From Amoebophrya sp. A120 (taxonomy: Eukaryota; Protista; Dinoflagellata), in assembly GCA_905178155.1 (NCBI GenBank), contig CAJINV010000005.1, positions 4,940,256 through 5,004,255 of the forward strand: DNA of 64,000 bases, given 5' to 3'. The translations under genes and the position numbers were made by a program. Below, one piece after another: positions 1 to 63,100 of the stretch. The notes beneath the pieces are model-generated. The model was not told the DNA's origin. It was given only the letters and a program-made list of their open reading frames with translations, and made no database searches. How positions within the stretch are numbered: position 1 is the stretch's first letter; the number at the start of each line of letters is the position of its first letter.

Positions 1-188
1 GGGGGAGCCTTGCATCTTCAGCATGATAGGAGGCAGCTGAGAGTGGGAAACAGCATGACAACTTGCCTGCAAACGAGACCACGACTGCGGCTCTTGGCCT
101 TCTAGCATGACAAGTCGATTTGGTACCTCAAATCCTGCATCACAGATTTCCATTTCGATATGGGGAGGGGGGATTTTTCCGTTGGATA
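1..188. mobile_element. Introner, family C (partial, right end only)
   Basis: Ends gatatggggaggggggatttttccgttggata; homologous to 2779-3089. Confidence 0.85.
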
Positions 189-3100
189 TTTCGTGTCCGA
201 CAACTTCGTGTGGAACTTAGACATCTACTGCGACGCCATATGGATTGTAAAAGTGTCTGGGTCTGGAAACTTGTGATGCTGGGTGGCGTATCATGAAAAG
301 GCCACAGATGCTGGCTCAGCACGACAAGCTTTTGAGCTTCTAGGTGTTGCCTATTCTGCATGACAAGCTGCGTTTCTGCATGGCAGCAGAATGGGGCTCT
401 TGGGAAACGGGCATAACAGATTTAAGAGTCATGCGAGACTAGCATGACAAATCTCGCAATCTTCCAGACCCAGACATTTTTGCATTCGATACGCCATGAA
501 GTTCTACGACTTCAACGACGCGGATAAAAACCTCGACGAGTGGTACCACATGGCGCTGATGTGGGACAAAGCGGCGCTGAAGCATAGAGTGTACGTATTC
601 CGAGTAAAAACATCCCCACTCCAGAGTTGTCATGCAAATTTGCATGCCAAAAAAGTTTCTCATGCGGAGCCCCATGAGAAGCTTTTTCTAGTCGTGTTTT
701 GGGATTTGTGATGCTAGAAATAGCATGATATGCTAGATCTGTGACGCTGCTGAACTAGCTAAACAGGATTACACGACGAGGACAAACTTGTCATGCGAGA
801 CAACCAAAGGTGGCCGATTTGTCTAGCAGATTTTCCACGTTGACTCTGGTATGGGGACGTTTTTACTCAGGATAGTACGTAAACGGTGTGATGATCAAGG
901 AGGGGACCACGGATAACGCGAATCTCCCCAACACTATCAAAGAAAAAAAGTTCGTCACGATCACTCATGCGCATTTTTGCAATGCAAAACTTTTTGTCAT
1001 GCGTAAAAATGCATCACAGCCAAACTTCATTAGGGATTTCCCTAGTATTTCTGCAATACAAGGAAAGTTTTTGATGCTGAGAAAATTTGTAATGCAAAAC
1101 CTGCAAGTTAGTGACTGTGACAAACTTGTTTCTCTCCATAAACACGGAAGTAGCGACAGGGAAGATCTGCCTGGGCGGCCGCGTGGATCTCTGCTGGGGG
1201 CAGGCGTCCGAGCGGTACCAGGGGGAGGTCGCCGGGTTTGCGGTCTACGCCGGGGCTCTAGGGGAGGCTGAAGTGATAAAACACATGGCCAGGACCGGGC
1301 CGCAGGGGCCGGTGCCTAGCTTTACGGAGCCGCCTTTTAAGGCGCAGATGCCGAAGGACACGACTGTGACGGTAGGCTACAAGCACACGAAGGAAAGTAT
1401 GTCTACCCGACCTTATGCAGAAGCCGAAACCATCCTCGGCCCTGCAACTTTTATCCGCACGACGCTCGCGGTTTCCCACGCGGACGGGCTGAAGAAGCTG
1501 GGAGCTTCTGTGATGTCCGAGAAGTTGGAAAACAGCTTCGAGAAGATTTTCCAAGAAAAAGCGGAATTGGTATTCGGATCAAATGTGAAAAAGCCCACCG
1601 AAAATTACCCGCCGCGGCTAAAGGGTATTTCCGTCGTGAAAACGACGGAAGCCGCTGCGAATTCCGAGCTTTTTTTGGAAGTAGTTCTCTCCTTCGCGGA
1701 TTGCACGCCGAGTGCGCTCGCGCGATTGCTGGTCCAACTATCGGACAATGCCGGTAATTCCGCCACAACGAGATCTGAGCTGGAGAAGAAGCTCACTTCC
1801 CTGTCCACTCCGAGCGGTTTCTCCGCGGTCCGGTTCTCCAACCGGGCGCAGGTCTTGCCGTCGTTCGACTACCCGGTGGCTTTTGATATCGAACTGGTCG
1901 GGATGGATAGTGGGAATAAAACTGAAGTGCTGAAACAGTTGGAAAACGGGGATAAGGAATTCGTCTTCGAGTCCGAGTGGCAATCCGCTTTTTCCGCCCT
2001 CCTCGGGCCGGCGGTGCGGCAGGCTTCTTTGACGAACAATTTTGATCTCGCCGTTGAGTCCGGTTTAATCGCCGCCACTGTCGCCACAAAGCGGTTTTTC
2101 CGGGGACCCACCACCACGACAACCACCACCACCGCGGGGTCGTCTCTCCGACTGCTGGGTGAAGAGGAAAGACGACAAATAGCAACCAGAAGATCTCTGT
2201 CCAGCAGCTCTGACGGCTCGAAGGAGGTTCTTAAAGTTTTCGTCACCGCCTCTCTGCCCGGTACCGAGGATCTCATCGGTTCTGGAACAATTTCCGTTCT
2301 GCAAGACCAAATCTTTTCCGCCGCAGCGAAGATCGTGCAGACGGTGAGCAAAAAATCCTCAGAAAACGTGAAAATCGTCCAGAACTCCGTGGATGTCGAA
2401 ACGGTGCACACCAAATACGCCCCCGGCGCGAAGACACAAAAGCAGACGGCCACGTTTTTGACAAGTCTGACGTTGAATCACGCGGAGGACAAGTTGTCCG
2501 CTTTGGATTTCAAATTCGGCTTGGCGAAGGGGTTGATTGCGGGAGGAAGTACCTCTTCCACGAAGGACTACCTAGCGTTGAACAACCTCCACGGCAAAGC
2601 CTTCCACGGCCAGTCCGGCGAGTCTTTTGGTGTTTCCCTCCTCGGCACTTCCGATAGTCTCAATTTCGGGGCGATTTCTGCTGGAGATTATCTCCAACCG
2701 CCAACCGGTAGTTCAGCCACCTGGGCGGCTGCGAGCGCGATTCCGTTCCTTGCCGTGTTCCCGCAGGTGGAGAAATCCTATTACAATGAAAAATGCCCCC
2801 TCCCCATATCAAAACGGAAATCTGTGATGCAGATTTGTGGTCACAAATCAGCTCTGTGATGCCAGAAGGGAAGAGATGCGTATTGTAGTGCTGGCTGGCG
2901 CAGGAACGCCTTGCGTCTTCAGCATGACAGGAGGCAACTGGAAATGGGAAATAGCATGACAAATTGCCTCCAAACGAGGGAGCAACTGCGTCTCTTGGCC
3001 TTCTAGCAATGCAAGTCGATTTGTGTACTCAAATACAGCAATACAAATTTCGTTTTTGATATGGGGTGGGGGGATTTTTCCTTTTGATAAATCCACTGGG

Positions 3101-6100
3101 TTGGTCAGGACGGCGAAATTTGACTCGAATTTGGCGTATGACAGTTCCTATGGATTGCAAAAATGTCTGGGTCTGGAAGAATGGCAGGTCTGTCATGCTC
3201 TGCTAGCATGACTCCAAAGTCTGTCATGCTCGTTACCCAAAAGCCCCACTTTTCTGTCATGCTGAAACGCGGTTTGTCATGCAGAATACGTAACACCTAG
3301 CAAGTCAGAAACTTGTCATGCTGAGCCGTCACTTGTGCCGTCCTCAGGATTCGCCAACCAGCATTACAAGTTTCCAGACCCAGACACTTTTGCACTTGAT
3401 AGTTCCTCCATCGTGAGTTATGATTCGAAGTTAACGACATTCCTGATTTCCGACGGGATTTTCGGCAGTGCGAAAACGAACGGCGGGATTTCCATGTGCG
3501 ACATCGGCTGCTCGGATGCTTCGACGGATTTCTGCTACGACAAACTCGTCAGCGACGTGGAGAAGGGGACTGTTTCGAGTTCGGACTCCACTAAAACGTC
3601 TTCTGCTGGGGAGAAGTATTTGAGGAAAACCAGTTACAGTGTTGCTGAGTGCGGTCGGACGGCTGTGTTGTTTCAATCTTCGTTTCCAAACGATGTGAAC
3701 GCAGCGAAAGCGGGGAATTTAGAAGACTGTTTAACTTACTGCGATACGCTTGGCCGTGTGAATTGCGCGGGGGTGAAGTTCTTTACTTCCTCGGGGACAA
3801 AGAAGTGCTTTTTACAGAAGTTCTCGTCCAAGGATTTTTTCAGCCGCGCGAAGGTTTTGTCTTCTGCCCCGACCTGCGGATCCGATGTCGCGTGTTTCGA
3901 GAAGCAAACGACGGGGGAGAATGAACCACTGTACACGGAAATGTTGAACCCGGCAACAGTTCCGGCCAAGAAGGGGCTGTGCGCAACAGGGAGCCATACA
4001 AATTTTCGTCTGCTGCCGGACCTCCGCGGTAGGGTTAAGGGGAACAAGTACAATTGTATGGAGCTCTATGCAATACAAATTTCCCCGTACATGTACAACA
4101 TGCATCACAAATTTCACCAATTTGGAGCGTAAAACTTGTCATGCTAAACTAGGATCAAAGCCATGTTTTGTCATGCAGAGACCGCATCTGTACGTGTGCG
4201 GGAAATTTACTGTGCATAAGCTCTGCACAGAGTACGGTCCGGATTGCGTTGGCGTCGCGGGTGTTCAGTTTAACAACGGCAATGACGGAATGGAGGCGGA
4301 CGGGACCGTGTTTTGTGAGCTGGAACTCCGCACCGTCGCCAACCTGGATGACAAATACCTTTCCTGGGGCTTCACCCTGAACGATTCGGGTTTTTCTACC
4401 TCGGAACCCGCGGCGGCTCTCAACACCGTGCAGCCTCGGACGGAACCGGCTGAGTGCTGGAAAAAGACGGCGACTGCAACGACGACGAACGGCCCTTTCG
4501 CCTCCTTGTCGAAGTTGTATGAGCAGAAGATCTCCGTTTTGAAACAGCAAGCGCAGAAGGCTGTCATGCCGTTTTTGACTATGGACGCGAAGGATCTACC
4601 CCACCCGTTGCTCGGCCAGAAACTAAACCTCGCGAGTACCCCATTGGACACGTTCACGAATAGAATCGTCACTGCGTCCTCGAACTTCAGTCCGGGAACG
4701 TACTACCAATTCTTGGGGTACGGAAACGCAAAATCCTCTTCGAATGGTTTGGTTGTCTCCGGTTCTCGCAAGTTCTACACGACTTATCAAATGCAAAAGT
4801 GTCTGGGTCTGGAAGGATGCGAACTTGTGATGCGTGTTGCGGATCATACAAAAATCTGTGTTGCATGACTTGCTAAAGTTCCCCATTTCTAGCCATGCCG
4901 GGGGGGGGGGTATTTCTCATGCAGAATAGGCATCACCAAGCGGCTGCAGAACCTGTGATGCTAGGCCCTGCATTACAGACTTGGTGGAGCTTGGAAAAAA
5001 TGCATGACAGATACCGGAATTTTCCAGACCCAGACATTTTTGCATTTGATACGACTGGGAATGGTGCGATCGCGCGGAGTGACAACGGGGTGATGGAGTA
5101 CGAGTTGATTTACAAAAATTGCTTCAACTACTGCGACTACCTCGGAAAACATTGTCACGCGCTCTCGATTCAGGTTGATTTAACCGACGGGAGTACCGGG
5201 AAGTACCAGTGCTTTGTCATGCTGGCCTCCCAGCCGGCTGCTACTCTTCTTCCGACCGCGCCGGCCAACACGGTGACAACCACGACAACCACGACGTATC
5301 AAAATGAAAAATCCCTTGTCCCCATATTGAAAAGGAAATTTCTGTTGCTGGATTTGTGTACACAAATCAGCTCTGTCTTGCAGTGGGGTGCTGCAGGCAA
5401 AGCCTCAGCCTGCTGCGTAGGGGTGTTTTGATGTAGGTGCTTAGCATAAAAGCAGAGGCCTGCCGTATAGGCGCAGCAGCATAATTACAAACCGCCTCCA
5501 TAAAGCGGCGCACTCTTTGGATTTGCCCTCTTGCAAGAGAGACAGGATTTGTGGCCACAAATCAGCGTCGCAAATCTTTAGAAGCGTGCCCTTTCAACAG
5601 TATGGGGAGGGGGGATTTTTCCTCACAATACCACGGCTTTTTCCTTCCCAACCATCTCTGTCACACGAGAGCCGGACACCGTGGACTGGTACGACGCCAT
5701 GGCGTTTTTGCCGGATAACGTCGGCTATGAAATGCAAAAATGTCTGGGTCTGGAAACTTGTGATGCTAAAATGTGGATGATGGAAACAGTTCCGAATGCA
5801 ACCCAGCATGACAACTTTCCAGAATGCTTTCTCATAGTCAATCCGCATGAGAAACTGCGTTATTGCATGTACAAAAGAGGCTGCGACTTGTGTTGGTTAT
5901 GCAATACAGGTTTCCTAGCTAAGGAAAGCAAGCATTACAAGTTCCAATCTTCCAGACCCAGACATGTTTGCAATCCATATCGGCGGGTTTTACGGCGGCG
6001 TTTGTTCGGACAGCAGCACGGAGGACATATCCTGTGTGAAAACGTCCCCACCCCTACAGAGTTGTCATGCAGATTTGCGATGACAGGAAGATTTGTAATG

Positions 6101-9100
6101 CGCATGTCCATGCCATGCATCACTAATCGCGTTTTGGAATTGGTGATGCTGTAAACAGGATAAGCAGATGGATTTGTGATGCGATTGTCCTTGCTAACAT
6201 GCACTACACTACGGAGTGCAACTTGTCATGCGTGGCTCCCAAAACTTCTGGATTTGTGTTGCTAAGGTCCCAACTTGACTTTTGATGGGATGGGGACGTT
6301 TTTACATATGATAGGACAAGGCAACTGTCTACGACAAAATCTGCGATGAGGCGGATAGCTCTATCGCGGACTGCGACAGTACTACGCACGACTGCTGGGA
6401 GAAGCCGGATACACTCGCTTCCGATCTACTCCCCAGGGACGTTTTGAACGAAATCGTGCAGAATCCGGACTACACGAACAACGGCCGGGGCGCCGGCGAC
6501 AAGTACGAGCCGCATCAGTACAAGCGCATGAATCTCGGCAGTCCGGATTTCGTCTACGAATTTGTGCGGCTCGGGATCTGCGGGACAGCAAACTACGGCC
6601 AGTACAACAGCGGGACAACGATTGTGCCGGACTATTTGTGCAATGAACCGAACGGGGGGCTAGACACAAAGCTAGGCGTAGGGACGTACGACAAGGTGCA
6701 AAAACGGCAATACATCATCCGCCAGTGCGACAAGTTTGTGAAAACAAACAGCTACTGCGCCGGGGTGACCTGGAACCAGGAACCCGACATGACGCACGCG
6801 AGTCCCGGGTACGCTAGGCCCTACGGCAGCATGGAGCGCAACATGAACGCCATGGCCATGCCCGGTTGCTTTCCGAGGAGTGGGGGCGGCTGGAGTGCGC
6901 CGGTCGGGGATATCACCGGTGTGCGGAGTAGCGGCACCTCCGGCAACGTGGACGGCGGCGGGAACGTGTGCTGGCGCCACAAACCCGTGCCTTATTCCCC
7001 GACGTTGTCGAAATTCGGCCACTGGTACAGTAGGTTTGGGACCAACAAAGCCGGGTCTGGGTTTTGTACCGCACAGAATGCGAACCCGAACAGTGGATCT
7101 GTGGTGAAAATCGCAGAAAAAATTACGCTTGGCGAGTGTTTCAACTTGTGTGATGCGATGGGCGCGGATTGCAAGGGAATTTCGATGGACAAGAGAACGA
7201 AATACAGTCACACGTACCAGGGACAAACCTGGTCGGCCCGCGAAGATTCGGACGAAAAAAGGGATTGTTATTTGAAGTTCAATGGGAAGACTTGCCAACA
7301 ATTGAAGCAATCTAACACCGGTCCGAAAAACGAAAAAATCACCTGCGATAACCTCCCGGCTGGAATATGAACTGCAAAAGTATCGCACTCGTATAAATGC
7401 ATTACAAATCTTCTCAGCATGAGAAATAAAATTTGTAATGCTGATTTGCCTTGACAATGAAACTTGTAATGCAAGACCAGCATTTATACGAGTGCGATAC
7501 TTTTGCACAGGATATGGAACCCCGCCGATCAATTGTCCGCTCGGTTGGCATATCAAATGCAAAAGTGTCTGGGTCTGGAAGAATGCAACTTGTAATGCGT
7601 ATTTCAGAACACAGAAAAGTCTCTCATGCATACGTAGCAAAAGCTCCCACTTTTTGTCAGCAGAGTAGGGGACTTGTCATGCGGATTCGGCATTCCGGAA
7701 GGTTCTCGAAACCTGTGATGCTAGAGCTTCCATGCCAGACCTTCTGTGTCATGCAAAAACAGCATGACTCTTCCAGACCCAGACATTTTTACATTTGATA
7801 TGGCAGAAGAGAAAGGACCCCAACTTTTTGTGCCCAGGTCGGTACGGGTGCTCCGCGAGTACGTGTTGCGAGGAGTCGACTTGTGCGAATAACAACGGCG
7901 GAAAAGTCGCGTCTGCTAGTGGTTTCGATTGCGCGTTCCACGGGGCGACGGCGCTATGCGGGGTAGATCCGAAAACCATCCGGTGTGGGAGAAACGGGGA
8001 GGGTTGTACGGTGCAGGACTGCTGTTCTACTGTGGCCACTGTATTCTGTGTAAAAACATCCCCACCCCAGAGTTGTCATGCAATTCTGCATGCCAAAAAA
8101 GTTTCTGATGCGGAGCCCCATGAGAAGCATTTTCTACCCGTGTTTTGGAATTTCAATTTGTGATGCTATAATCAGCATGATGTGCTAGATTTGTGATGCT
8201 GCTGAACTACCTCAACAGGATAAGGATTACACTACGATGAGAAACTTGTCATGCGAGACAACGAAAGCTGCCTGGCTGATTTGTCTAGCAGCTTTCCCAT
8301 CTTGACTATGGGGTCGTGAGGACGTTTTCACTCAGGATAAGACCAATGCGGTAATTACGGGTGGGAGCTCGACTGCCCGGGCAGTGGCGGACAAGACTGC
8401 ACGAAAAATTTTGGTGAAATTGCCCAGGCGGCGGCATTATGGATTGCAAAAATGTCTGGGTCTGGAAGGATCCAACTTGTGATGCTGTCTTTGGATTCTA
8501 AAAAAATCTGCATTGCATGACCAGCAAGAGGAGGGGGAGGCCAGTTTGTGTTACATGGAGAGGGTATTTCTCATGCGGAATAGGCATCACAAAGCCCTCT
8601 AAAAATCTGTGATGCTAGGCCATGCGTTACAGGCTTCGTGGCTGATGCAGAATATGCATGACAAACCTTCCATTCTTCCAGATCCAGACATATTTGCAAT
8701 GCATAGGCAGGAGGGCAGGAAGTGGTGTTCGTGAAGAGGAATGTGTTTGGCGATCAATTGTGGGATAGCGGTTACATCGCGGATTTCTACAAGAGTTCAA
8801 CCCAGTTGACCTCCAAAGCAGAATCCACCAAATACGGCGCAAGTAGATCAATCATCTCCCTCGGGACGCACTATGCCGTCACGAAAGATGAGTGTGCGGA
8901 CGCGTGCAACCAGTTTGGGGACTCCTGCGACGGCTTCATGCGGTTTCCGAAGGACAGTGCGGATACGACGAAAGCGACCTGCGCGCTGCAGCTCCTGCAA
9001 CCCAGGCCGTTGCACTGCGCGTTCGATTTCGGGAATTCTGCGAATTCGCCTTCAATAACCTCCGTTCCCGCCGCGGCTGATGTGGCAGATGGGGAGGCGA

Positions 9101-12100
9101 AAATCATCGCCGCATTGGCGAACGCGGCGAGCAACAACTTCGGGAGTGCGGTTAGTATCGCGAATAGCGATTTCAACTGCTGGGTCCGGACGAAGAGGGA
9201 GATGAGTCCCTACTATTTGATCCCGGGTAAAACGATCGGGATGGAATCTGTTTCGAGTACTTCGACTTACGACGACGTCATGCGGTACCACGGGGTGACG
9301 CGGGGAATTTGGCCGGTCCCATCCCACGTCTACCACATCTCGAAGTTGAACCCAACGACGCATTTCTACACGCCGATTGGAGGCACAACCGGCGGGTCTT
9401 GCGTCGGCGGGTTGGGAAAGCACGTGAAATCCGCGTTCGCGACTGTCTCCGGACAGACTCCTTCTAGTCAAGACAGCTACGCGCCGATTCAAGGTTGCTT
9501 CGACGCTTGTGACGCGATTGCGGAGTGTCGAGGGGTGTCTGTGTTAGTCGCCGGGACGTATTACGAGACCGGGAGTACCACGATCAACACGGCTGACCGG
9601 GATGTTTCTTGCGAGTTGCATTTAACGTCCTGCGCGAGCTTGTTCGACAGCACGTGGTCGGACGCCTGTACGACCACTACCACCACCACAACCTCCACGA
9701 GCTCGACCACTACTACTTCCTCCACGACGAGCTCGACTACGACTAGTTCGACCACGACAGAAACCACGACTTCGACGGTAACCACGACCACCGTGACCAC
9801 CACCACCGTGACTACAACGTCGACCGTGACCACGACCGTGGCCGACGGCGGGGGCCGGCGGAGTCTCATCGCAGCAGGAAGTTCTACTTCCACCACGCGA
9901 ACGCTCAGTGAAGCGCAAGCCAGATCTCTCGCTGGTGAAGACGCGGATGCGGTGTTCACGGTCGATAGTAGCAGAACCGGCGGGGAGTGGCAGTGCTGGC
10001 AGAAGCGGAACTTTGACAAAGTGATTTCCGGCGACTTCGGGGATTTGGCGCCAGCAGGCGGGTTGATCAGTAAAACGACCGTCGGGACCTGGTTTGCAAA
10101 GGCGGAGAAAGAAAGCTCGCAAAACACATGCTTAAACAAAGCGTTAAACGCGAATAAAGATGCGATTCTGGACTCCCCGACTGGAAACGCCGGTACCGGG
10201 GAACGGCGCGCTCTACTAATCGGGAACAGCGAGTCCGGGGGTGCGCAGCGCTGCGCGGCTTTATGTGCGGACCACAAGGACTGCGTGTTATGGATTGCAA
10301 GTATGTCTGGGTCTGGAAGAATGCAAGATTTGTCATGCTTGTCTGGCATGACTGTTATCTCTGTGATGCTTAGGCGCAAAAAGATCTTCTTGCCTGTCGT
10401 GCAAAAATGGAGGCTGCTATGCGGAATACGCATCACGCAGGTGCTCAAAAACTTGTCATGCTTGATCACCTATTGCGGTGAGCTCATTATTCACAAACTT
10501 GCATCACAAGTTTCCAGACCCAGACATATTTGCATGTGATACGTGTCTATTGTGTCCGATGTGAAGGGCGCGGAGAAGTTCTGCGTGCTGATCTTGGATA
10601 TCTCGACTCCCTCAATTCCGAGTGCCAAGCAGGCGACTTGCTCGAGTTCGATCGAAGTGTTGAACACCGTGATCGCGGAGACCGGCGTGCAGTATAAGGA
10701 TTCCAGTACTACTACCGTGTTGCCAACATCGGTGAAAAAGTACACACTGTACAACGCGCCAGCAAGCTCTTTAGCCTCCGACAAACCCTTGACGACAACG
10801 GGCGGGTTTTTGGAGACGGTCGGATCTGCGGTTTCCTCCGTTACCTTCGACTTTACTGCCGAGTGGACGAATCTGAACAACGCGATGGCGGAAACGAGCT
10901 TTATCACGAAGGCTGTGAGCGCTTTGTCGTTTTTCCTCAAGCAAAACGTGCAAAGTACTTACACCTTCGCAACCCCGACGTTAGCCATGCCGACGTTGAG
11001 CATGGATACGTCCCTCGGAACGGTTCGGAATGATGCGAACATGATCAACTCTTTATCAAATTTGTTCGTCTCCGACCGGTACCCGGTGGCGAAGGTCTAC
11101 GCTTTGCAGCAGTTGGACGGGAACAAATTGAACACTGTGGTTTCCTTGAAAATCCAAATCGGGTTTGACAGTGCGGATATTGCGTTGTGGAACGAGATTC
11201 GGGGTTCTTCCATGGATAGTGGATCTTCCGCTCCAGGCGCCACGAAATTTGCCAAGTTATTGGAAACCTTCCGTCTTGCCTTAGAGTCGACTTTGGATTC
11301 CGCGATCTCGGGGAAAACCATTGTCCTCGGGGGGCCAGACTTGGTGTCCGGGTTTTTCAATTCGAATAGTGAAATAACCGTGAGTTTCCCCGTGTCTGCT
11401 GGTTCGGAATCAGTTTCGGATAACCAGATCGTGACGAAAGTTCTTGAAACTTTGACGAACTGCGACAATGGATCCACTTTCTTGAAGACCATATGCATTG
11501 CAAATGTGTCTGAGTCTGGAAACTTGTGATGCAAGGAAGGGAATAGTTTGCATATTGGACTGCGCTGCCAAGCATGACAAGTTTTTCCGTTGTTCTCAGT
11601 TGCGCATTCCGCATGAGAAACTCCATTTTTTCATGACAGTCAAGAGGAGCTCTTCGAGGCCACGCAATACAGAGCTTAGAGTCATGCCAGACTGGCATGA
11701 CAAATATCGCACTCTTCTGGACCCAGACATTTTTGCATTTGATAAACCACCGTGAAAAACCAGTGGCAAACCAATATCGCAGCGGTTTCGGACATCGCGG
11801 GCTTGACGCTATCCTGAGCAAAAACATCCCCACGCCAGAGTTGTCATGCGAATCTGCATGCCTAAAATTTCTCTCTTGCGGAGCCCCATCAGACGCATTC
11901 TCCAGTGGTGTGGTGAAATTTTTGTATCTCGAATCAGCATGAAGAGCTAGGTTTGTGATGCTGCTGCACTAGCTAAACGGGACCCTATTGCGAGCCCAAA
12001 CTTGTCATGCGCAGCAGAAAAAGCTTGTTGATTTGTCTTGCAGATTTCCCTTCTTCACTATGGGTTGGGGAAGTTTTTGCACAGGATAGACGCTCACTTC

Positions 12101-51100: not shown

Positions 51101-54100
51101 AATAATACGCCAGATAATCGCTTGAATGAGCCCTACCATGCATGACTAGCATGACAGACATGACCCATTTCCTTGTCTCGCATCACAGATAAACGCTAAC
51201 ACACTTTTTTCCTCGCGATACCCGGCTTCGAACGGCTACCAATACGACTATTGGTGGGAAAAGCGGCAACCCGCGCTGGGGAAGTCCTATTCCCCGAACA
51301 CGAGGACTCTAGACATGGAAAGGTACTACCACCAGCAGTACTACGAGACGATGAAGCCCTATGGGCCGACCGTGTGCTTCGCGCGCTGCGACGCCCCCGG
51401 CGTGGGGAGCGAGTGCGCGGTGAAGTACGATCGGAAGAAGTGGTGGGATGGGACTCTCTGGTCCGAGCCGGCGAAGAGGCCGTGGCAAGCGTCCACAACC
51501 TACACCTACGAGTGGGACATGGGCGAGAAGGACACGGACTGCATGTCGCACGAGTGGGTTTCGATCCCCAACTCCATGATTCCCAGTTCCAACAACGGCA
51601 TTGCCTTCGATGATACAATCAATGATGGAAAGCCAACAATGACTCGAGATTTCTGCCAAGATCTCTGCTACGGGTCCTTCAAATACGCCGACGTCACTGG
51701 GAAGAAGCAGTCGCGCTGCCGTGCCATCGCGTTTGACGAAACAAGCAACAAATGCCGGCTGATGATGCAGAAGCAGGGGGGTTCCAACCCCTTAGCTCCC
51801 GCAAATGCGATCGCGACGCAGTTTGAACTACTCTGGCCGAAGAACTTCGGAAAAGTGGATCTCGTCACGAACGCGTTTATTTGTGACGCGGTGGCGAACC
51901 CTTCCACCTGCTACAACGCGGTAGCGGCCAGGGGTGTGATCAAGGATTCCATGCAGCTAGGTTCAAGCTCCGCGAACGTCGAAGCAGTCGCGTTTCCGCC
52001 GGCTGTGATGCAAATCGGGTCCAAATCTTCCCCCGCAACTAGTCGGTCCAACGTGCGAATTGGTGCGTCGAAATCGGTGGAAAAAAGAAACCAGGACAGC
52101 TACATTGAAGCAAGGTTTGTTCTCAACCCTGGTGGTACCGGGACTTTGGAACCCGCAATGGAGCAAGAGCTGATCGAGAAGATGAAAATTTCCGCGTATC
52201 TGACTGTCGTGAAGCAGAAGTTCCTCTTCCCGATGAACTTAGTCGACACGGAATACCATTTCGATGCAACAAACTTTCAGTCCGCGGTGGATTCCGGAAT
52301 TCTCTCCCTGAACCGGATCTCCGTGGTTTTAGGCGAGTCTTCCGCCACCGCTGCGTACCCGGAAAGGACTTTCGTGATTACCTATCACTTCCAAACGGCG
52401 GACTCTGGGATTGTGGGGGAGGTCCTGCGGTTTGTGAACCGGGATAGTTATTTGAAGACACTTACAGACGAGTTGAAGGAGCAGTGTAAATCAAATACCG
52501 CGCTAGCTTCGACTTTGATCCCGGTGCGGCCGCCGGGGGTCACGGTTCCGGACACGATCACGAAGCGGAAGGACAATTTGATTACCGCGAATTTGCTTTC
52601 CTTCAGTGAGCAGTCGGGAATGAAGATGTTTTTGCAAGTGACGATCGAAAATGCGGCTGATTCCAAGCAGAAGGTGGAGAGAATTCTCCGCCGGAAGTTG
52701 GTCGGCTCTAAAGACAACAACTGGATCGCGCGGTCTATCGCGACTGGGTTGAACTCCAGACTCGGGTTGGGCTTGACCAGCAACCACGTGGCGGTTCGAA
52801 TCAAGGAAATCACGCTATCCGCAGCGAAAACCGGCACAGCACTCGATGGAATATCAACTGTAAAAATGTCTGGGTCTGGAACATTCTGACACTTGTCATG
52901 CACGTTTTGCATGTGCCCTGATGTCTGTGATGCGTGCCCTAGCATCACAGATTTTTTGAGAGCTTCTTGTTGCCTATTCCGCATGACAAATGCCCTCGCC
53001 ACGTAGCAAAAATTACATTTCTTTTGGTACTCATGCAATACAGATTTTTCTGGAATCCAAATGCAGCATCACAAGTTGCATTCTTCCAGACCCAGACATT
53101 TTTACATTTGATACGGAACGACCACAGTCGACTGCATGGATGCGGAGATTTTCTTCTCCTTCTCCATCCCATCCGCCGCACCGAGTCTGCAACTCTGGTT
53201 CAGCCGAGACGGGGCAGCCAAGCAGTCCGCGGTATTGGATGCGATTGATGCGAGCGTCGCAACGCTGTCGACTTACAAGACGACGAAGAAGTCGGAAATT
53301 ACCGGTTCTGTGAAGCAAACCCGGTTTTTAGAAACCGTGGTCGACGCGGATTTATCCTTAAACTACAAGGACGTCAACGCGTTTGACAACGCTGGGGTGT
53401 TTGAGAAGTTGATTTCTGTTGCTGCGGATTATCGAATGCAAATGAGTCTGGGTCTGGAAGATTGCGAGACTTGTCATGCTGATCTGGCATGACCCTTAAC
53501 TCTGTATTGCGTAGCCACGAACAGCCTCTCGCTCCTGTCATGCAAAAACGCGGTTTCTCATGTGGAATACGCAGCACAGAAGCGCGGAAAAACTTGTCAT
53601 GCTTGGCGGCGCATTACAGTGCATTTGTTATTGACGGACTTGCATCACAAGTTTCCAGACCCAGATATATTTGCAGTGCATACGGAGGTGGCGTTCGCAA
53701 ACCGGAATTCCGGCAGCTTCAGGTTGGATTCTAGTACCTCTGCTTCTGCCGAGGTAAAGCAGATTTCCGATTTGTTGACCTCCCTCGACATGGAACTGCC
53801 GATAGCGAGCGAGTTGATAGTTGGGTTTGACGCGCGGGAGCATTCGCCTGTCACGGATGACATGCTCTGTTCGTTCGACGCCACAACACCGGTGAGTCGG
53901 AAGCGCAAGGTGGTTTTGACCCTTCCCTTCACCTGGGAAGAGCATTCCACGGTCTCCGGGCAGCAGGAGTCGTTTGTGAAAACGTTCGAGTCGTTCGTTG
54001 GATTGTTCTATGAGGAAGAAGGCGGGACTGCGACCATAATGGCAAACCACTTGAAAGCGGCGTTGAACATGCTTTTAGATGGTGAAAAGGTCATGACGGT

Positions 54101-57100
54101 GGCGAATTCTGTCGCGCCGGCGGCTTCGAATTCGCAAGTCACGGGCTTGACCTGGAAGGGGTACAAGAGCAGTAGTAGTTCTTCTAGTTCATCTTCCTCT
54201 TCTCTGCGGGCTCTGACCAGCTTGGAAGGGAGATTTATCAAATGCAAAAATGTCTGGGTCTGGAAGATTCTGAGATTTGTCACGCAGTTTTTCCAAGCTC
54301 CACCGAGTCTGGAATGCAGGGCCTAGCATCACAGGGTCCGCAGCCCCTTCGTGATGCCTGTTCTGCATGAGAAATGCCCTCTCAGCATGGCCAGAAGTAC
54401 GCACCTTTTGCAAGTCACGCAGCACAGATTTTTGTATGATCCGCAACATGCATCACAAGTTCGCATCCTTCCAGACCCAGACGTATTTGCAATGCATAAG
54501 ATTTGAACAACAGCAAGAACAACTCGATTTCGCCCTCGAGCACATGGATCTTTTGGACGAGAACTACGAGGAAACCGCGGCTCTCCGGGAGTTATCCTCT
54601 TCTTCTACTTCCACCGCCGCTGTTGAGCCAAATTGGTCCGCGATGGCGGCAACAACGGATCTGTCCCTCCAGTCGAAACCCCGCGCGTTCTTTCTGGAAG
54701 TGCCGGTGGACTTGACTGTGGTGCATTCTCTGACGCAATTCTACAGCAAGGAATACATTTCGATTCTCTTGAAACAAGCGACGTTCGATTTAGTCGAGGC
54801 AGAAATCGTGAATGTCGGATCTAGTAGTGAAACCGTCAGAACCACTGCTTTGTCCGCCTGGAAGCAGAAATTGGAAAAACTAACCGGAACGGTTTCCGCC
54901 GGGAGTCCTCGAACCGGGGGGCAGAACAGAGTCGATATCGATTACGAAAACGACCCGGTTTTGCTCGTCGATTGCCGGTTTGATATCACCAGGTCGACGT
55001 CCCTTTCTGATGCTGCTTCCACCGATAAGGATTTCGCAGTGAAAGAAACAGCAATGGTTTTCCTGCAACTCCAGCAAGCGGACTCGTTCGTGATTGGACA
55101 AATCTTGACGATTATGGCCGATCAAACGAAGTTGCTGGCGAAACTACAGGGGCAAACCTCTTTAGGTTCGACTGGCGCGACCATCTTCCCAGAGTTGAAA
55201 ATCCTCTCCCGGGATGGTCTCCAGCAGGTCCCCGCAGGGGATACGGTCATCCCTTCCCTCGCCGTTTCGAAACTTCGGCTCCCCGTCATCGCTGACTTGT
55301 TAATCGACGAAAACGCCATGTTGAAGCCAAACGGCACGGTGGTTGCCACGGAAGTCGCGGACGCGTTCCGGGAGTTGCTGGGGGATGTGTTGACAACTGA
55401 TTCTTTCACGTTACCCGCTTCCTCCCTCATCGCAGAATCTTCGACGCAGGCGGCGGGTTCGGTTTACAACCAGTTTTTGTTCGATTTGTACGTGCCGATA
55501 AGTCTGTCTTCTTCTGTTTTGTCTGCGGAGAAATTGGCGTTTTTGAAATCCTCTAACGCTGCGGAATTCGTGAGACAGAAGTTGAACTCTGGGTTCGAAT
55601 CCGATAATTACACTTCCGGTCGCGTGAAACAATTGGTGATTAAAACCGGGGGGAGTTCTGTCCAGCAGGATTTCATCTCGACGCATTTTAAACTAACTCC
55701 CGCCCCGAACCCGGAAGTTTTCAAGGCGGTTGCGGCGTTCCAATCGGTCTTCGCGTCTGTGTTTTCCTCGTTGAAGGACGGAATACAATTCCCTCGGTCG
55801 GAGATGGTGGTTGTCGCGCCGGAAAAGAACCTCGCGGTGGACAAATTCTCCATCGTGATGCCGAGCAAGAGTTTGCTTTCGTACAGTGATGCAGAGTTGA
55901 TATCTGCACTGCAACAAACGGACAATCTGGCGAACTCCGTCACCCCTCGGTTAGAAGGGGTGGGAATTTCTCTATCCGCCGCTTACCCCCCGCCGAGTGG
56001 GACCTTGAAGTTGACGGATACAGCGATCTTACCGACCAGTTCGAAGGACGTTGCGACTTTGAACAAAAACTCGGGTCTGAACTCCAACGGCGTTTTGGAA
56101 TTAACCGCCGGGATTTCAGTTTTACAAATCGACTTCCGGGTGCTGTTGGCGAACAGCGAGAGTAGTTCTCCTGAGATGAAAACCGCTCGGCAGAAGTTGG
56201 GTTTTAGCGATAAATCGAAAGTCGGTGGTTTGTTGGAAGAACTGAAGACGTGGTTTAGGGCTGCGATCAAGGAATGTCTTGATTCAGGCTCCACCGCGGA
56301 AGTCGCGACGGTCGTTTCTTCCTCTAAGGTGAAGTCCGGGAAAGTATTGACGGGTTCGAAGACGATTCAGTCTAACAAACTCACCCTTTCCGTCCGGCTT
56401 TATACCGGGAAGGAGAGCAATGCGGAGGATGCTGCAAAATCCGTTCTCCAACTCTCCCAGATGCTGAATAAAGGAACAAGCAAATCCACTTGCGTCTTGG
56501 ATAAAGTGAACACGAACCTGCAGACTTTCACGACCTTATCTTCGTCGGATGCTAGTGCTGAGATCCTAACCGACTTCCCGATTGCTCTTCCAGTGATCCA
56601 GGGAAGAGGGTTGATTTCCGCCGGGGCAGGTTCCGCTGTCGTTACCGCGGTGAAGAAATCAGGGACTGGAGAAAATCCAGTTTCCCCACTAGCGAAAGCT
56701 TTATCCGATGCGTTAGCTGCTGCCGACGCGGGTAACGTCCCGGCTGAGATGATCACGGTGGACGTTCTCGCGAAAGCAACGCAAACCAGCACTAAAGCGC
56801 AGTTCTCCTTCGCGATTCCAGGTGCTTTCGGCCCGGAAGCTGACTTTTTATTGAAGTCCAATCCGCCCGAAACGCTGAAATTTCTGCTGGAGAAGAGCTT
56901 GAAGCTGCGGCTGAAGGAGAACACTGTGACTGGTGTTTCCACCACCGATGCGGAGAATGTGAAAATCGAACTCGCTTCTCTCAACGGGGCGAAGCAGCAA
57001 GACACGGTGTTTTTAACCGGGTTGGTGGAGATCCAGGAACAAACGAGTTCTGGAAATATTGACCCTGTGACAACTGCTTCCGCGTTGTCTTCCGGGTTGC

Positions 57101-60100
57101 GAGCCGTTGTTTCCTCCGCTTTGGAGAAGGAGGGTTTGAAGCTCGTTGCCCCCTCGGTTTCTTTCACGGATTCTGTTGTGAAAGCAACTCTTGTATCCCA
57201 AGGAAAAACTGTTTCACTGTAAACTTGTAATGCAGAAATTGTATCTCAGAAGTGCTTGTCTTGCTACACATGCAAGACAATGGATTTTTAGCGGTGTTGT
57301 CTCTTGGAAATCTCGCATAGCAAATTTTCTTTGTCATGCAGGACAAACTTGTGATGCAAAACTTGCAAAATCCTTAAAGTGAAACACTTTTTTCGTACGA
57401 TATCTTGCCGGTATGACTTCTGCGGAACAGGTGGATTCTTACCGGGTCAGCAACGTGATCGTCGCAGAAGTGACGAGTGCTGCGGATGTGAGTGGCGCGA
57501 CTGGGAAAAAGCTGTACTATTACATTGTGCCGTTGAACCTGCAGGAGCGGAATTTTGGAACAACGGCTGGTGGAGTAGCTTCTTCTACTCCCGTCGCTTA
57601 CTCCAATGTCGGAGGCGCTTCCCTCGCGAAGTTGCAAAATGTAACAAACAGCTTCGCTGCGGATTTCGACACGGAGTTCAACAAAACCTTCTCCGTGCTC
57701 GCGAACGCAGAAGGATTCGAACTGACCACGATAGTATCTTCTTCTGATGGTGGAGCTAGTAGTGCAACAAGTTCTTCCTCAACTGGTGCGGAAATCTCCC
57801 TCGCGAAGCAATTCGAGAAGAGCCTGCTGCAGCAACCGACCAGTTCGTCCCTCTCGCCGCTGTTTCTATCCTGAGTAAAAACGTACCCACACCAGAGTCA
57901 AGATGGGGATTTTGCAACGCAAACCTAGAACTTTTGGGGGTCACGCATCACAAATTGCAGTCCGTAGTTTAGTGCAGGTTCGCAAGGCCAGCTGCATCAG
58001 AAATCGATCTGCTCATCCTGTTTACAGCATTACAAATTCCAAAACACGACTAAAAATGCCTCTCCTGGCGATGCGCATTACAAATGTTCCTGTCATTGCA
58101 AATCTGCATGACAACTCTGGTGTGGGTACGTTTTTACTCAGGATAATTTCTCGAGACGAAGTTCATGGTCCAAGCAGACCTTTTGGACAACACTCTGGAC
58201 ATGAAGGACAAGCTATCACACAGAAAAAAGCAGGCAGCGCATGTTTGTAATGCAAAAACAAATAGACAGAAGAATCTGTCATGGGTTAATACCCCATAGC
58301 GTTCTGCTCAGGACATGCAATACAGATTTCTTTGTCTATTTATTTTTGCATTACAAATCTGACGCGTCTGCTTTTTTCTGTGTGATACAAGCAAACCAAG
58401 CTCGCGTTCGACAAAGTCGTCACCTCCCGGTTCCGCAGCGCAGTAGCCCACGCGTTGAAAGAAACGCTAGAGACTGAGAAGAAGGACCAACCGCTTTTAC
58501 CCGTTTCCTGCTTGATCGGAAAAGGGACGGAATCAAGAGAGCAAGCAGTAACCTCCACCACGACCACCACGACCAACCCAAATTGCTACCAGGAGAATCT
58601 GGCTTCTTTCCTTCCCGGGAGGTGGGAACTCTACATGTACAAGGGCGGGAGTGCTGGGAACGGCTACAATGACATGCGAATCGGGAAAAATGTGAATGGT
58701 CTGGGCACGCTCTGCCCGCACCCGACGAGTGGGAATGCAAAGATGGCGGAAGCGCTGTTCAACGAAAAGTGCTTCCGGCAAATTCTCGTCGTCGGCGGCG
58801 ACAAGACCTGGGGCCGAATTTGGTCGAAAGACGGGTCCTGCATCCCAGGCACCGACGCGTTTGGCACGGGTGCGAAGGGAACGATGAAAGATCGTTACAG
58901 CTCGGAGTGGAGCAGCAAGCCCGCTGGGGAGGTGGTGGATCTGCAAATAAAGCATGCGCACCACGGACCTATGATTGGCGATACCAACACGGGCAGTCAG
59001 TGGATGTGGCGGTGTAATAGCTACCCGAATTGCGCGCAGACCGATACGGGAAAAGTGGCTGGGGGTACCGGCCTGACGCTGTCGACCACCCTCGGGCGGC
59101 TGGTCACGGTGCCCGGCCAGGATCCCACCCAGGCAACGATGAGTTGGAACTGGTACGGGAGTCAGTTGTATGGTGTTGAGCCGGGCCCGTCCCCGTTCAT
59201 CCGGCAGCACCGGCCGATGACCTGTGTGGTTCAGGTGGAGCAGAGTGATGCTTCCGACCAGAATTACCTGCAGACGGTTATCGGGTTGTTGTCCGAAGCG
59301 GGTGTTGGGGACGCGGCGAGCAGTACTCTGAAGGAAAAAAGAGATTTGTTCTTGACCAATCTGGAAGTCCACTACAAGCAATTTCCACCCACGACGACCA
59401 CCACCCCGGCCGGGTATGTGGCGCCGCCCCCGCCGAGGTTCTGCCCGGCGGAGTTCGTCTGCCCGGGCGGGATGACGGTGAAGGACGGTGATGTAAAACT
59501 CTATCAGTGCCGGTCCCCGTATGGTTGCGTGGCGCTCGATTGCTGCAAAGTATCGGAGAAGAGTGTGTTTCAAGACGTGGCGTTTTCTGGAAAAATGGCG
59601 GAGTTTTTGGACGCGAACCACGTACTCGGTTTCAAGTACAAAACTGGGTTTGATAAAGAACAGATCTTTTCCACCGGTAGAGGTATCCTATGTAAAAACA
59701 CCCCCACCCCAGAGTTGTCATGCAAATCTGCATGCTGAGAATGTCTCTCATGCGGAGCCCCATGAGAAGCATTTTTTATTCGCGTTTGGAAATTTGTCAT
59801 GCTCCAATCAACATGGGAAACCGGATCTGTGATGCTGCTGAACTACCTCAAACAGCACTACACTACGAGCCCAAATCTGTCATGCAAAACAGCCAACACT
59901 TGTGGATCTGTCTAGCCGATTCCCCATCTTGACTATGGGGTGGGGACGTTTTTACATAGGATAAGAGGATCGTCGAGTTCATCTGCTGCGGAATTCCTCT
60001 CTTCCACCACCGCTTTCTTAGAGTTCGACGCGAAGAAGGTACTGGATGCGTACTTCACTGCCCACCAGTTCACATCTTCGAACTCCCCGGTGACTTTGTC

Positions 60101-63100
60101 CACAACGGATGCAGGGAAAATCGAATATGAGAGCATCAAACACTTCTCCACGATCGAAAACGATTTTTATCTGAACCACGGTGGTCTTGCCGTGCAAAAC
60201 CAGCTCCGAATGAAATCCCAGACGGATATCGACGCGATTTTCGCCGATTCCGCTCTGGAAATTCAGTTCACGCCAATCAGAGCGATCCTCAATTCCGCTT
60301 TCGGCGAGGCGTTAATGGATTTGACCGGTGTGGAGAATCTCACGCCGTTCCACGTGAACAGCAGACTGAGGAAGATCACGGGAACAGGTGCGGATCTGAA
60401 GGTTGAGCTGGCGGTTTCGATCCCCTACGCCACCCCGGAGTCCGGCTTTTTGAAGTTGATCTTCAAGAAGCTGGACAGTACTAGTACCGCGGGAGGTACT
60501 ACCAGCGCAGATAACTCCGTTTTCGGCAGCCGGATGAACAAAGCGTTAGCGAAGACGTTTGGGATGAGCGACCCAAATTCTGCGGATTTTTATCCTGTGT
60601 AAAAACGTCCCCACCCCAGAGTTGTCATGCAGATCTGCAATTGCAGGAACATTTGTAATGCGCGTCCCCAAGGGAGGCATTTCCAATCGTGTTTTGGCAT
60701 TTGTAATGCTGCGAACAGGATAAGCAGATGGATTTGTGATGCGGCCGTTCTTGCTAACATGCACTACACTACGGACTGCAACTTGTCATGCGTGGGTCCC
60801 AAAACTTCTGGATTTGTGTTGCTACGTTCCCAACTTGACTATGGGGTGGGGACGTTTTTGCATATGATAACTTCGGAATCAAAATCACCGAAGACGCGAA
60901 GGAAACGCAATTTGTGACCGCGAAGATAAGATTATCGCCGGAAGTGAAGGAGTCGCAGGAACTAACAAGTACGATTCCCAGTACTGGCGCAAATCTCAAG
61001 CAGTCTGCTTTCTCCGACGATTCCATGCTGTCGGTAGCTCAGGCTGCGGGGAGAAGTGCTGTGTTGGACATCCTGGGGCAGGCGGGGTCGAAGGTGAGCA
61101 CGCCGTGGTCTTTGTTGGCCATTCCGGAGGCGGTGCAGAATGAAGCTGGTTCATCTTCTACCGCCTCCTCTTCCCTGCGGAGCCTGGGTAGTAGCGCGTC
61201 TGAGCTGTTCGACTCCAGTAGTGCGCTGGTGGCGACCGGGCAGGAACTTGTTGCTCCGGCTGCGAAGAAGTGCTCGTCGCAGAGCGACCTTTTCTCCTCC
61301 ACCGGAGCGCTTCTCTTCGACAGTGACGTCACCACCGCGTGCACAGAAACCGAAACCACCCACCCGTTAGATCCGCGCGGCGACCACCCGAGTCCGATGC
61401 CGATCGACAGTTCATCCGCTGCTGCGTTGCGCGAACTTACGGCAAGTACTAGTGCAACAAGCAGTGCACAAGCGCAGAAGCGGCAGTACGACCTGAGACT
61501 GATCCTCCCATTGTCCGAGGAGATTTTCGACCCGGCAAACATCCAGTCGATCATAACCGCGTTCACTTCTGCCGGCAACAACTCCCCCTTCTACGGAAAG
61601 TTCGCCACAGAAATCTCCACCAACTTCCTCCCGCCGAAGCAACTGGCGGATGGGTCGACCAAGCCCGTGTTCGCTTCCACGAGCACAAATGATGTGATCA
61701 ACGTTTTGCTCCCAACCGCGTCTTCCTCCTCCGCGGATTTGTCTGGGATTACTGTTTCCGCAGATGTGCCCGCGCAATTTGGCATCAGCTACTTGCAGGT
61801 GAAGCTCGGCTTGATTTCCGAGCAAGGGATCCCGGCAGTCGCGTTGCAGAAGGCGTTTTTATTGGCGTGCAAATCGGAACTAGTAGAAAACATCATGTTT
61901 CCGAACAACTACAAGATCGATCAAGTCTCCGTGACCCACATCGGCCAGTCCGCGGCGGAGAACAAGAAGGTGCAAGACTTGTATTCTGCAGTTCTCTACA
62001 TCATATGAGAGTGCACAACTCCCCCTCCTCCTCATTTGTCATGCAAAATCCCAAATCCATATCCAGCTGCTGCCTTGTAGCACTGTTTGCATGACAAATT
62101 CTGGAAGCCCAAACAGTACTACACTGGGCACATAGATTTGTCATGCATAGGCTCCATGTGCGCTGGTGTTTGTATTGCTGTTCATGCCATACAAATGGGG
62201 GCGAGGGGGAGTTGGGCACTGTCATACCTCACCGGAGCGTCCCACAACGAGATTGGGCGGATCCAGAGTCTGTTCGTCCCGATGGTGGTTATGAAAGTGC
62301 ACAACTCCCCCTCCCCCTCATTTGTCATGCAAAATGCCTAAGTTACGCCGGGGTTCTTGGCAATGTTTGCATGACAAGTTCTAGCAGCCCAAATAGCACT
62401 ACAATCCTGCCCAAACTTGTCATGCAAAACCGGTAATCTTGCTGATGCTTGTATTGTTGTTCATGCAATACAAATGAGGGGGAGGGGGAGTTGTGCACTT
62501 TCATGGTGGTGAAGGGAAAAACGGAAGACGCGGCAAGTGATGGCCTCGCGAAGCAGTTTTTACTGAAGATTGGGGAGAATCTGGCGGATGAGCTGCAGAT
62601 CACAGACAGTGCGAAATATCCTCAGACCTTCACCGCTGACTTCGCCGATCCGGTCGCCCAGTCGATCGCGAAGATTGAGTTACAAAACGCTTTACCACCA
62701 CCCCCACACGACGCCGAAAAATGCGGCTACGACCCGAACCCCTCGATTCTTCCGGGCAAGTGGTTCCTCTACATGTACAAGCACGGACAGAATAAAGCGG
62801 CCAACGGCTGGAATGACATGCGGTTTGGGAAAAACGTTAATGGGTTAAATTCCCTCTGCCCGCACCCGACAAGTGGGAATGCGAAAATGTCGGAAGCGTT
62901 ATTCGACGCGTCCTGCTTCACGGAGCTCCTCGCGGTCGGTGGCACCGGCGCGTGGGCGAAAATCTGGCGCAAGGACGGGGCTTGTATCCCCGCGAAAGAC
63001 GCGTTTGGCGAGGGAGAGAAGCGGACGAACGGCTTCTACAGCATTGAGTTTTCCACGGGCTACAAGGGCGACGCGATTGTGAAGAACTTGTACCACGGAC

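Follow-up and report, generated by a model that had tools for sequence, protein, structure and literature searches.

How can a gene be read through 68 transposon-like interruptions that have no common splice dinucleotides? The question is raised by a 64,000-nucleotide (nt) stretch of the dinoflagellate Amoebophrya sp. A120 (GenBank assembly GCA_905178155.1, contig CAJINV010000005.1, forward-strand positions 4,940,256 to 5,004,255), here called the window and numbered from its first base, in which one giant gene is open at both ends. The interruptions are non-coding inverted-repeat transposons with 5-bp target duplications, a class already published as the introners of this strain (Farhat 2021, PMC7789003). 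From sequence comparison we propose, with a probability of about 0.5, that they are removed by RNA splicing at a fixed register set by their terminal hairpin, probably by a modified, U1-less spliceosome.

Element census and anatomy

A strict scan (TAT..ATA ends, perfect 5-nt flanking repeat, terminal inverted repeat (TIR) match of at least 12/20, length 100-420 nt) found 46 elements in the window and none in each of 20 dinucleotide shuffles. A tolerant scan found 63, and five more (8042, 17310, 26555, 49323 and 51012) were placed by hand at the frame breaks left over. This makes 68 complete elements, occupying 18,143 of the 64,000 bases, and one truncated by the window start that ends near position 188. 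BLAST clusters of 32, 13, 6 and 4 elements, four pairs and five singles regroup as families A (32 members), B (13), C (6), D (9), E (2), F (3), G (2) and H (1); scans, frame breaks and clusters agree on the number and family division given in a first-pass annotation of this DNA. In the list below, strand is given for coding features, and fractions are matching positions in the direct repeat.

190..64000, + strand: host gene, a single frame of 15,109 codons or more that runs past both ends of the window
1..188: element truncated by window start, family C-like right end
239..491: family A, 5/5; empty site in duplicate domain
596..874: family B, 5/5; empty site in duplicate domain
935..1140: D-like, 5/5; empty site in duplicate domain
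2779..3089: family C, 5/5
3149..3401: family A, reverse orientation, 5/5
4067..4218: family E, 5/5
4785..5051: family A, 5/5
5297..5630: family C, 4/5
5726..5979: family A, 5/5
6028..6313: family B, 5/5
7366..7514: F-like single element, 5/5
7551..7800: family A, 5/5
8042..8339: family B, 0/5, frame kept; at end of P0001 homology
8438..8705: family A, 4/5; TGA if whole left repeat kept
10289..10541: family A, 5/5
11492..11744: family A, 4/5
11810..12088: family B, 5/5
12312..12521: family D, 5/5
15075..15356: family B, 4/5
15412..15659: family A, 5/5
15908..16228: family C, 5/5
16424..16751: family A, 328 nt, 5/5
16816..17029: family D, 5/5
17310..18432: family A, 1,123 nt with nested insert of ~860 nt, 5/5
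18775..19053: family B, reverse orientation, 5/5
20553..20923, + strand: second copy, without elements, of the LamG-like domain at 190-1310; serves as empty-site control
20967..21229: family A, 4/5
22263..22515: family A, 4/5
22565..22829: family A, 5/5
23653..23974: family C, 5/5
24562..24851: family B, 5/5
25523..25835: family C, 4/5
26149..26416: family A, 5/5
26555..26810: single element (H), degenerate TIR, 5/5
26867..27118: family A, 5/5
27302..27557: family A, 4/5
27956..28217: family A, 5/5
29466..29719: family A, 4/5
29917..30168: family A, 5/5
30218..30520: family B, 5/5
31432..31695: family A, 5/5
32066..32318: family A, 5/5; the sole element stop-free and in frame if retained
35248..35396: family E, 4/5
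37446..37708: family A, 5/5
37772..38035: family A, 5/5
40413..40645: D-like, 5/5
40727..40987: family A, 5/5
41150..41411: family A, 5/5
41512..41764: family A, 5/5
42183..42465: family B, 5/5
43043..43364: family C, 5/5
43414..43678: family A, 5/5
43739..43947: family D, 5/5
44266..44422: F-like single element, 3/5
45924..46185: family A, 5/5; A25 homologue aligns gapless across site
49323..49479: F-like single element, 2/5; A25 homologue residue agrees with left copy
49672..49950: family B, 5/5
50562..50762: family D, 5/5
51012..51220: family D, 4/5
52852..53113: family A, 4/5
53430..53682: family A, 4/5
54236..54498: family A, 5/5
57194..57402: family D, 5/5
57867..58145: family B, 4/5
58214..58387: D-like single element, 5/5
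59684..59963: family B, 5/5; sole GT..AG at the favoured register
60591..60869: family B, 3/5
62004..62226: family G, 4/5
62290..62505: family G, ends ATG, 5/5

TAT and ATA ends are exact in 67 of the 68, and A occupies TIR positions 11-13 in 63-67 of 68 elements per arm, giving TAT, 7 nt and at least three A. The direct repeat matches at 5/5 positions in 49 elements, 4/5 in 15, 3/5 in two, 2/5 in one (49323) and 0/5 in one (8042), so that a repeat of at least 4/5 spans the exon/intron borders of 64. The A120 introners are described with inverted-repeat ends of TAT + 7 nt + AAA, direct repeats of 3-5 nt (5 bp in the example of the Fig. S19 legend) and introns supported by RNA sequencing, the non-canonical introns of the strain averaging 240 nt (PMC7789003). 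Terminal motif and repeat both match; support from RNA reads is at the level of the class, with A120 gene models as indirect support for the junctions, and the first-pass assignment to non-GT-AG introners of the Amoebophrya type holds. Its statement that every interruption has TAT..ATA ends and a 5-bp repeat needs qualification: the 5-bp duplication is borne out by an empty site (below), but just 49 of the 68 have a perfect repeat, and one element ends in ATG.

Elements lie in both orientations and no pair is inconsistent: family A has 14 forward and 18 reverse copies, family B 10 forward and 3 reverse. Identity within the families of 32 and 13 members is 65-91%. The longest stop-free stretch has a median of 67 and a maximum of 177 amino acids (aa), by which the elements are classed as transposase-free, domain libraries not having been applied to their open reading frames (ORFs). 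TIRs, a constant target-site duplication and two insertion orientations identify them as MITEs (miniature inverted-repeat transposable elements), that is, non-autonomous TIR DNA transposons; they would have arisen from a TIR transposon system, either cut-and-paste or copy-paste, whose staggered cut spans 5 bp. A search for an autonomous partner found none in 411 kb of metagenome loci, where five longer TIR-bounded elements (457-834 nt) have a longest ORF of 150 aa, and the family-A end motif had no match in viral contigs. Integrase-like TIR elements have been reported in A120.

All 17 elements sampled fold better than their shuffles (z -3.2 to -11.1). The consensus structure of 30 family-A copies (31 copies minus the 328-nt one, that with the nested insert being also excluded) is the terminal stem alone, with 30 pairs, one of them showing two-sided changes; these copies have no conserved interior helices. 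Rfam models gave no match at gathering score in the 64 kb, and the elements are not placed in any of its self-splicing or structured RNA families. TIR positions 4, 5 and 7 are paired in just 35, 33 and 32 of the 68, while the extreme ends are well kept: TAT/ATA deviates at 1/408 positions versus 34/960 subterminal ones (family-A positions 16-30; P about 1e-5).

Reading frame, empty sites and host protein

Excision of each element with 5 further nt yields 15,109 + strand codons, stop-free when zero to four bases of the left repeat are kept (five of six registers); the sixth, with all five left bases kept, has one TGA, at 8438. Removal lengths other than 2 mod 3 leave 353-369 stops. Removal of the element +2 leaves 1-3 stops, and +8 and +11 are stop-free in some registers; from the frame, the removed length is therefore known only modulo 3. 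For 35 elements a single open frame exists on either side, and all 35 fit +5. The element at 17310 with its ~860-nt nested insert (about 17520-18379) also fits the frame. The first-pass claim that taking out the element plus 5 nt restores the frame is thus upheld, as is the need for precise removal: retention of an element would disrupt the frame or introduce a stop in 67 of 68 cases.

It is an element-free duplicate domain, and not the frame, that establishes the 5-bp target duplication. A LamG-like domain occurs twice, at 190-1310 with three elements and at 20553-20923 with none, and the alignment is gapless over all three junctions. Of 48 positions at each junction, +5 gives 45, 31 and 29 matches, versus 31/32, 24/25 and 22/25 for +2/+8. 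The ratio of nonsynonymous to synonymous substitution rates (dN/dS) between the duplicated domains is 0.10, so the exons are under purifying selection; its lack, together with an untranscribed locus, had been named beforehand as refuting the first-pass account.

Homologues give further junctions. The A120 paralogue P0001 is 94% identical over 499 columns (one module) and crosses four of five junctions gapless; at 5297 the alignment has a gap of 2 residues inside a run of poly-Thr, and there is a 1-residue insertion five residues past 7551. The A25 homologue P0002, 26-32% identical, is gapless at 45924, and one window exon matches an A120 protein at 96%. The gene model of the window itself was absent from the protein-search returns, and the best match of a protein atlas search (0.79) is a lead only. 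The only element without a direct repeat, 8042-8339, lies two codons past the end of the 500-residue module, 94% common with P0001. Recombination between two copies of family B, with shuffling of exons, may have produced it; its halves are 84-88% and 76-80% identical to family B, with best matches that are largely the same.

The host protein is a Ser/Thr/Ala-rich giant with duplicated LamG-like and Cys-rich (weak PAN-like) modules; 16 exons scanned for domains gave a LamG match and weak PAN matches only. It exceeds 15,109 residues, with several internal duplicated modules and poly-Thr linkers. The parasite probably secretes this giant protein or carries it on its surface.

A second data set was built from stretches of a metagenome collection with the family-A end motif, at least 178 in number and, among the matches listed, all from one assembly; merged, they form 174 loci of 411 kb. 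Among 332 elements detected there, 206 are called coding with +5, versus 75 at +3, 59 at +4, 72 at +6 and 58 at +7. On the window's 68 elements, the same caller assigns the correct strand to 63 and leaves five uncalled. TAT/ATA deviates at 3/441 positions versus 70/2205 subterminal ones (P 5e-4), with a detector that permits one terminal mismatch at most and a search motif that favours intact ends. A homologue search with a cyclin exon gave six low-complexity matches, nothing useful, and a Ras-family exon had no match among solved structures.

The direct repeat and the position of the cut

The first-pass annotation supposed that the machinery reads the direct repeat as well as the stem. Mismatches between repeat copies occur at 22/335 positions in the window and 48/1025 in the second assembly; the two copies differ in 19 window elements and in about 20% of those of the second assembly. 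At about 3% per copy, the repeat loses identity at roughly the rate of the subterminal TIR bases. Its sequence is thus probably not read, and the elements with 0/5 (8042) and 2/5 (49323) repeats still keep the frame; this part of the claim is not supported. The opposite view, that removal requires the repeat (for instance through strand exchange guided by it, or template jumping of a polymerase) and that the junction may fall anywhere within it, can point to the 49 perfect repeats, to diverse published junction motifs, and to an excess of synonymous mismatches (11/22 versus 26% expected, p 0.025; 34/73 in both sets). However, half synonymous is also near the prediction of a fixed register, sliding by an aligner reproduces the motif diversity (below), and the left/right bias over repeat positions is directional; together with the decay and the surviving frames, these make repeat-dependent removal improbable.

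Mismatches between the two repeat copies reveal which copy remains in the exon. The test used 73 mismatches in 61 elements, excluding 8042 and duplicates. Codon likelihood peaks at 11.1 with four left bases kept, against 7.9 with three, 4.5 with two, 4.3 with five, -0.6 with one and -4.3 with none. The left base is the better one at 37/56 mismatches in positions 1-4 and at 8/17 in position 5. A sign-flip test gives P 0.022 when the best of six registers is taken, and P 0.006 for preference of the left copy over positions 1-4. At 8438, keeping all five left bases gives the TGA, so the 5′ cut there precedes the last repeat base; the 43 mismatched elements of the second assembly contain no stop codon that constrains the register. 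An orthologue was compared after the register had been inferred: in P0009, the A120 orthologue (90% identical) of the gene at metagenome locus L028, a His agrees with the left copy at position 3 (element read by eye), a Leu with the left copy at position 4, and a Gln with the right copy at position 5. All three sites fit, and the register with four left bases is the only one that fits them all. The Glu of the A25 homologue at 49323, which agrees with the left copy, and an AP-2 alpha Glu at repeat position 1 compared with locus L055 are also consistent with it.

These comparisons point to one dominant register, with cuts 1 nt ahead of TAT and 4 nt beyond ATA and an intron of the form N-TAT...ATA-NNNN, which we regard as probable. 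A GT/GC donor with an AG acceptor is found in 3/68 elements in any register, so they lack the splice dinucleotides of canonical U2 introns, and the first-pass finding of no common GT/GC donor or AG acceptor stands; it missed, however, that one register of the six gives every element T at intron +2. At the favoured register, 59684..59963 is the only GT..AG element.

Published splice-site diversity

The most frequent non-canonical A120 motifs in Farhat Table S4 are GT-AC, CT-AG, AT-AG, GT-CG, GT-AA, CT-AC, AT-AT, AT-AC and TT-AG (PMC7789003). For six large families with 1,898 introns in the Gozashti dataset, 5′ ends are GT in 27%, AT in 17%, GC in 5% and GA in 5%, and 3′ ends AG in 29% and AC in 18% (PMC12130899; the comparison covers 21 of 58 A120 rows of one dataset). 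No fixed register yields high GT and high AG together. When each of 271 junctions is shifted inside its repeat to where it best resembles, in part, GT-AG/CT-AC, presumably the scoring rule of BLAT, the outcome is GT 25-34%, AT 12-21%, AG 25-31% and AC 13-27%, with nearly identical top motif pairs. The A120 annotation, as described, was made with BLAT. Since sliding within repeats reproduces the motif tables, the published diversity is likely an aligner artefact; for the same reason we did not count the tables for or against any register. If the single register is true, the 'unprecedented' splice-site diversity of A120 becomes one code, N-TAT...ATA-NNNN, and tens of thousands of annotated borders have to be re-placed.

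What removes the elements

Removal very probably takes place at the RNA level. The anatomy is that of a DNA transposon, as precise excision from DNA (like that of the internal eliminated sequences of ciliates) would have it, and within 30 nt of 64/68 elements there is some GT/GC..AG pair that keeps the frame and that an ordinary spliceosome might use. But a register bias that follows transcript direction does not match symmetric DNA excision, and the introns were located by placing RNA on a genome that retains the elements (PMC7789003). The nearby canonical pairs, for their part, would add or lose residues where duplicates and paralogues align without gaps (shifts of 9, 36, 23, 12, 46 and 18 nt at six junctions). 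Both routes are very unlikely.

We propose that the TIR stem (positions about 8-30) clamps the two ends together, whatever the orientation of the element, and that the cut is placed by distance from TAT/ATA. Exactly one 5-nt repeat length would then be lost, and the repeat sequence need not be read. A ruler formed by the terminal stem and TAT/ATA is suggested because orientation is symmetric, an 860-nt insert is tolerated and the repeats decay. At the 1/4 register, every intron would have U-A-U at +2 to +4, resembling a 5′ splice site minus its G, and the A at 7 and 5 nt from the intron 3′ end could serve as branch.

As to the catalyst, we lean slightly towards the spliceosome. A120 is reported to keep nearly all spliceosomal proteins and the U2, U4, U5 and U6 small nuclear RNAs (snRNAs), with U1 snRNA undetected (PMC7789003), and a relative with U1 has GT-AG introns (PMC12005148). 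In Stentor the branch A is the 10th of 15 nt (PMC9505925). One GT-AG intron in the L028 gene likewise begins GTAT. A red alga is said to splice without U1.

A tentative second choice, to which we give distinctly less credit, keeps the same RNA hairpin ruler and assigns catalysis to a dedicated duplex-reading endonuclease and ligase (of RNase III or tRNA-endonuclease/RtcB type, or derived from a domesticated transposon protein), a route also put forward for nonconventional introns in euglenozoans. It would account for the full strand symmetry, the absence of arm asymmetry in 206 elements and the lack of enrichment of G+1 and AG. RNase III leaves a 2-nt overhang, from which the 1/4 cut differs. 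Of the six registers, moreover, only the favoured one gives each element a U at +2, a base that is invariant for the spliceosome, and among the strains described undetected U1 coincides with these introns. On the other side again, RNase III with a ligase has been proposed for diplonemids (PMC12621601), and the introns of Euglena are ruler-defined (PMC12501133) and excised as circles (PMC11282704), which argues for a non-spliceosomal route. The 'dedicated' machinery of the first-pass annotation is only one candidate, a modified spliceosome fitting at least as well.

Several points besides the Euglena circles weigh against fixed-register splicing by a U1-less spliceosome. The register is a statistical signal; its position 5 hangs largely on one stop codon and one orthologue residue, and the orthologue residues may just reflect the ancestral base. 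At this register G at +1 is not enriched (85/272 versus a 29% background), nor is AG at the 3′ end (27/271 versus 20.5 expected, p 0.135; an apparent enrichment, p 0.026, was lost with this codon-phase-matched background). A change in TAT/ATA is present in 14 of the 206 coding elements of the second assembly, and no arm asymmetry was replicated in these oriented elements. A branch A 5-7 nt from the end, within a stem, would be unusual, and U1 may be present in A120 yet undetected.

Candidate asymmetries seen in the window were dropped after comparison with the second assembly: a G at position 4 of the 5′-arm TIR (19 versus 8; 47 versus 50 in the 206 oriented elements), compensation between G+1 and G+5 (p 0.023; p 0.20), better conservation of repeat positions 3-4 (p 0.012, post hoc; mismatches 13/8/6/11/10, p 0.55) and a bias of G-U over A-C in the stem (42 versus 28; 115 versus 126). 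A lower folding energy of the sense strand in the window (41/67, p 0.02) was not relied on.

A bolder version, which we think doubtful, is that A120-type cells have a second, non-spliceosomal form of mRNA splicing that would read a strand-symmetric transposon-end hairpin and cut by ruler 1 nt on the 5′ and 4 nt on the 3′ side, independent of sequence. If true, any 5-bp-duplicating insertion could be undone without a scar, a whole transposon superfamily would yield perfect introns, and the system would be convergent with the code of Euglena.

Further observations on the elements

A motif of GCAT-ACA type occurs in both orientations, in variable-spacer arrays inside all element families: 244 copies in 18,331 element bases versus 12 in 45,669 outside for the window, and 1,072 in 80,580 versus 455 in 330,641 for the second-assembly loci. 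It is likely a binding site for one protein serving all families, for example the transposase. In window and loci alike, element lengths fall into classes near 150, 205, 260 and 320 nt (steps of ~55 nt), family B near 280 being the exception. Family-A TIR positions 4-7 and 10 have several fixed end variants, mixed independently across left and right arms, which suggests arm exchange between copies.

The ~860-nt insert in the 17310 element has no inverted repeats and apparently a 6-nt duplication; a relative at locus L026 (about 785-1570; 91.7% over 530 nt) is seemingly outside any family-A copy.

Short exons of 40-65 nt are in excess (15/68 versus 2.5 expected; 0 of 20,000 simulations), the shortest being at least 31 nt. 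In the second assembly 65/199 inter-element gaps measure 30-80 nt and none is below 20. This clustering suggests local hopping or a spacing set by chromatin; insertion into linkers has been reported for other introners.

Comparison with known systems

What is added here to the published element class is a proposed single-register code that can be tested and a likely reason why the published motifs look so diverse; whether a U1-less spliceosome or a new nuclease/ligase is at work also becomes testable. A scarless intron that is blind to sequence and orientation would be a useful tool. In the literature searched on Amoebophrya and other nonconventional introns, which left most subscription papers outside, no fixed register or mechanism is stated.

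The A120 introners (PMC7789003, PMC12130899) resemble the window elements as non-coding TIR elements, tens per gene, without common splice dinucleotides. Nothing separates the two in kind; in the published account the border is variable or unknown, whereas we propose one register.

The nonconventional introns of Euglena (PMC12501133) are alike in a proposed MITE-like origin, paired ends and an indel-tolerant interior, and their junction is set by fixed spacers from a paired motif, the 3′ spacer being the longer. They differ in having a CAG/CTG motif, spacers of 3 and 5-6 nt and a purine at the exon start, where the window elements have TAT/ATA and probable spacers of 1 and 4 nt; the Euglena code has been tested genetically, while ours comes from sequence. 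The first exon base is a purine in 35/68 window elements, which do not carry the euglenid N3-CDG...CH'G-N5-6 signature. They thus appear to work like euglenid nonconventional introns without being members of that group.

The introners of Micromonas and Aureococcus and the non-canonical introns of Fritillaria are likewise transposon-derived, and are described as removed by the U2 spliceosome (PMC11282704, PMC7789003). Those of Aureococcus have a TIR and a target duplication, as the window elements do. All three carry or co-opt fixed splice dinucleotides, whereas the window elements lack them both at +1 and at the 3′ end.

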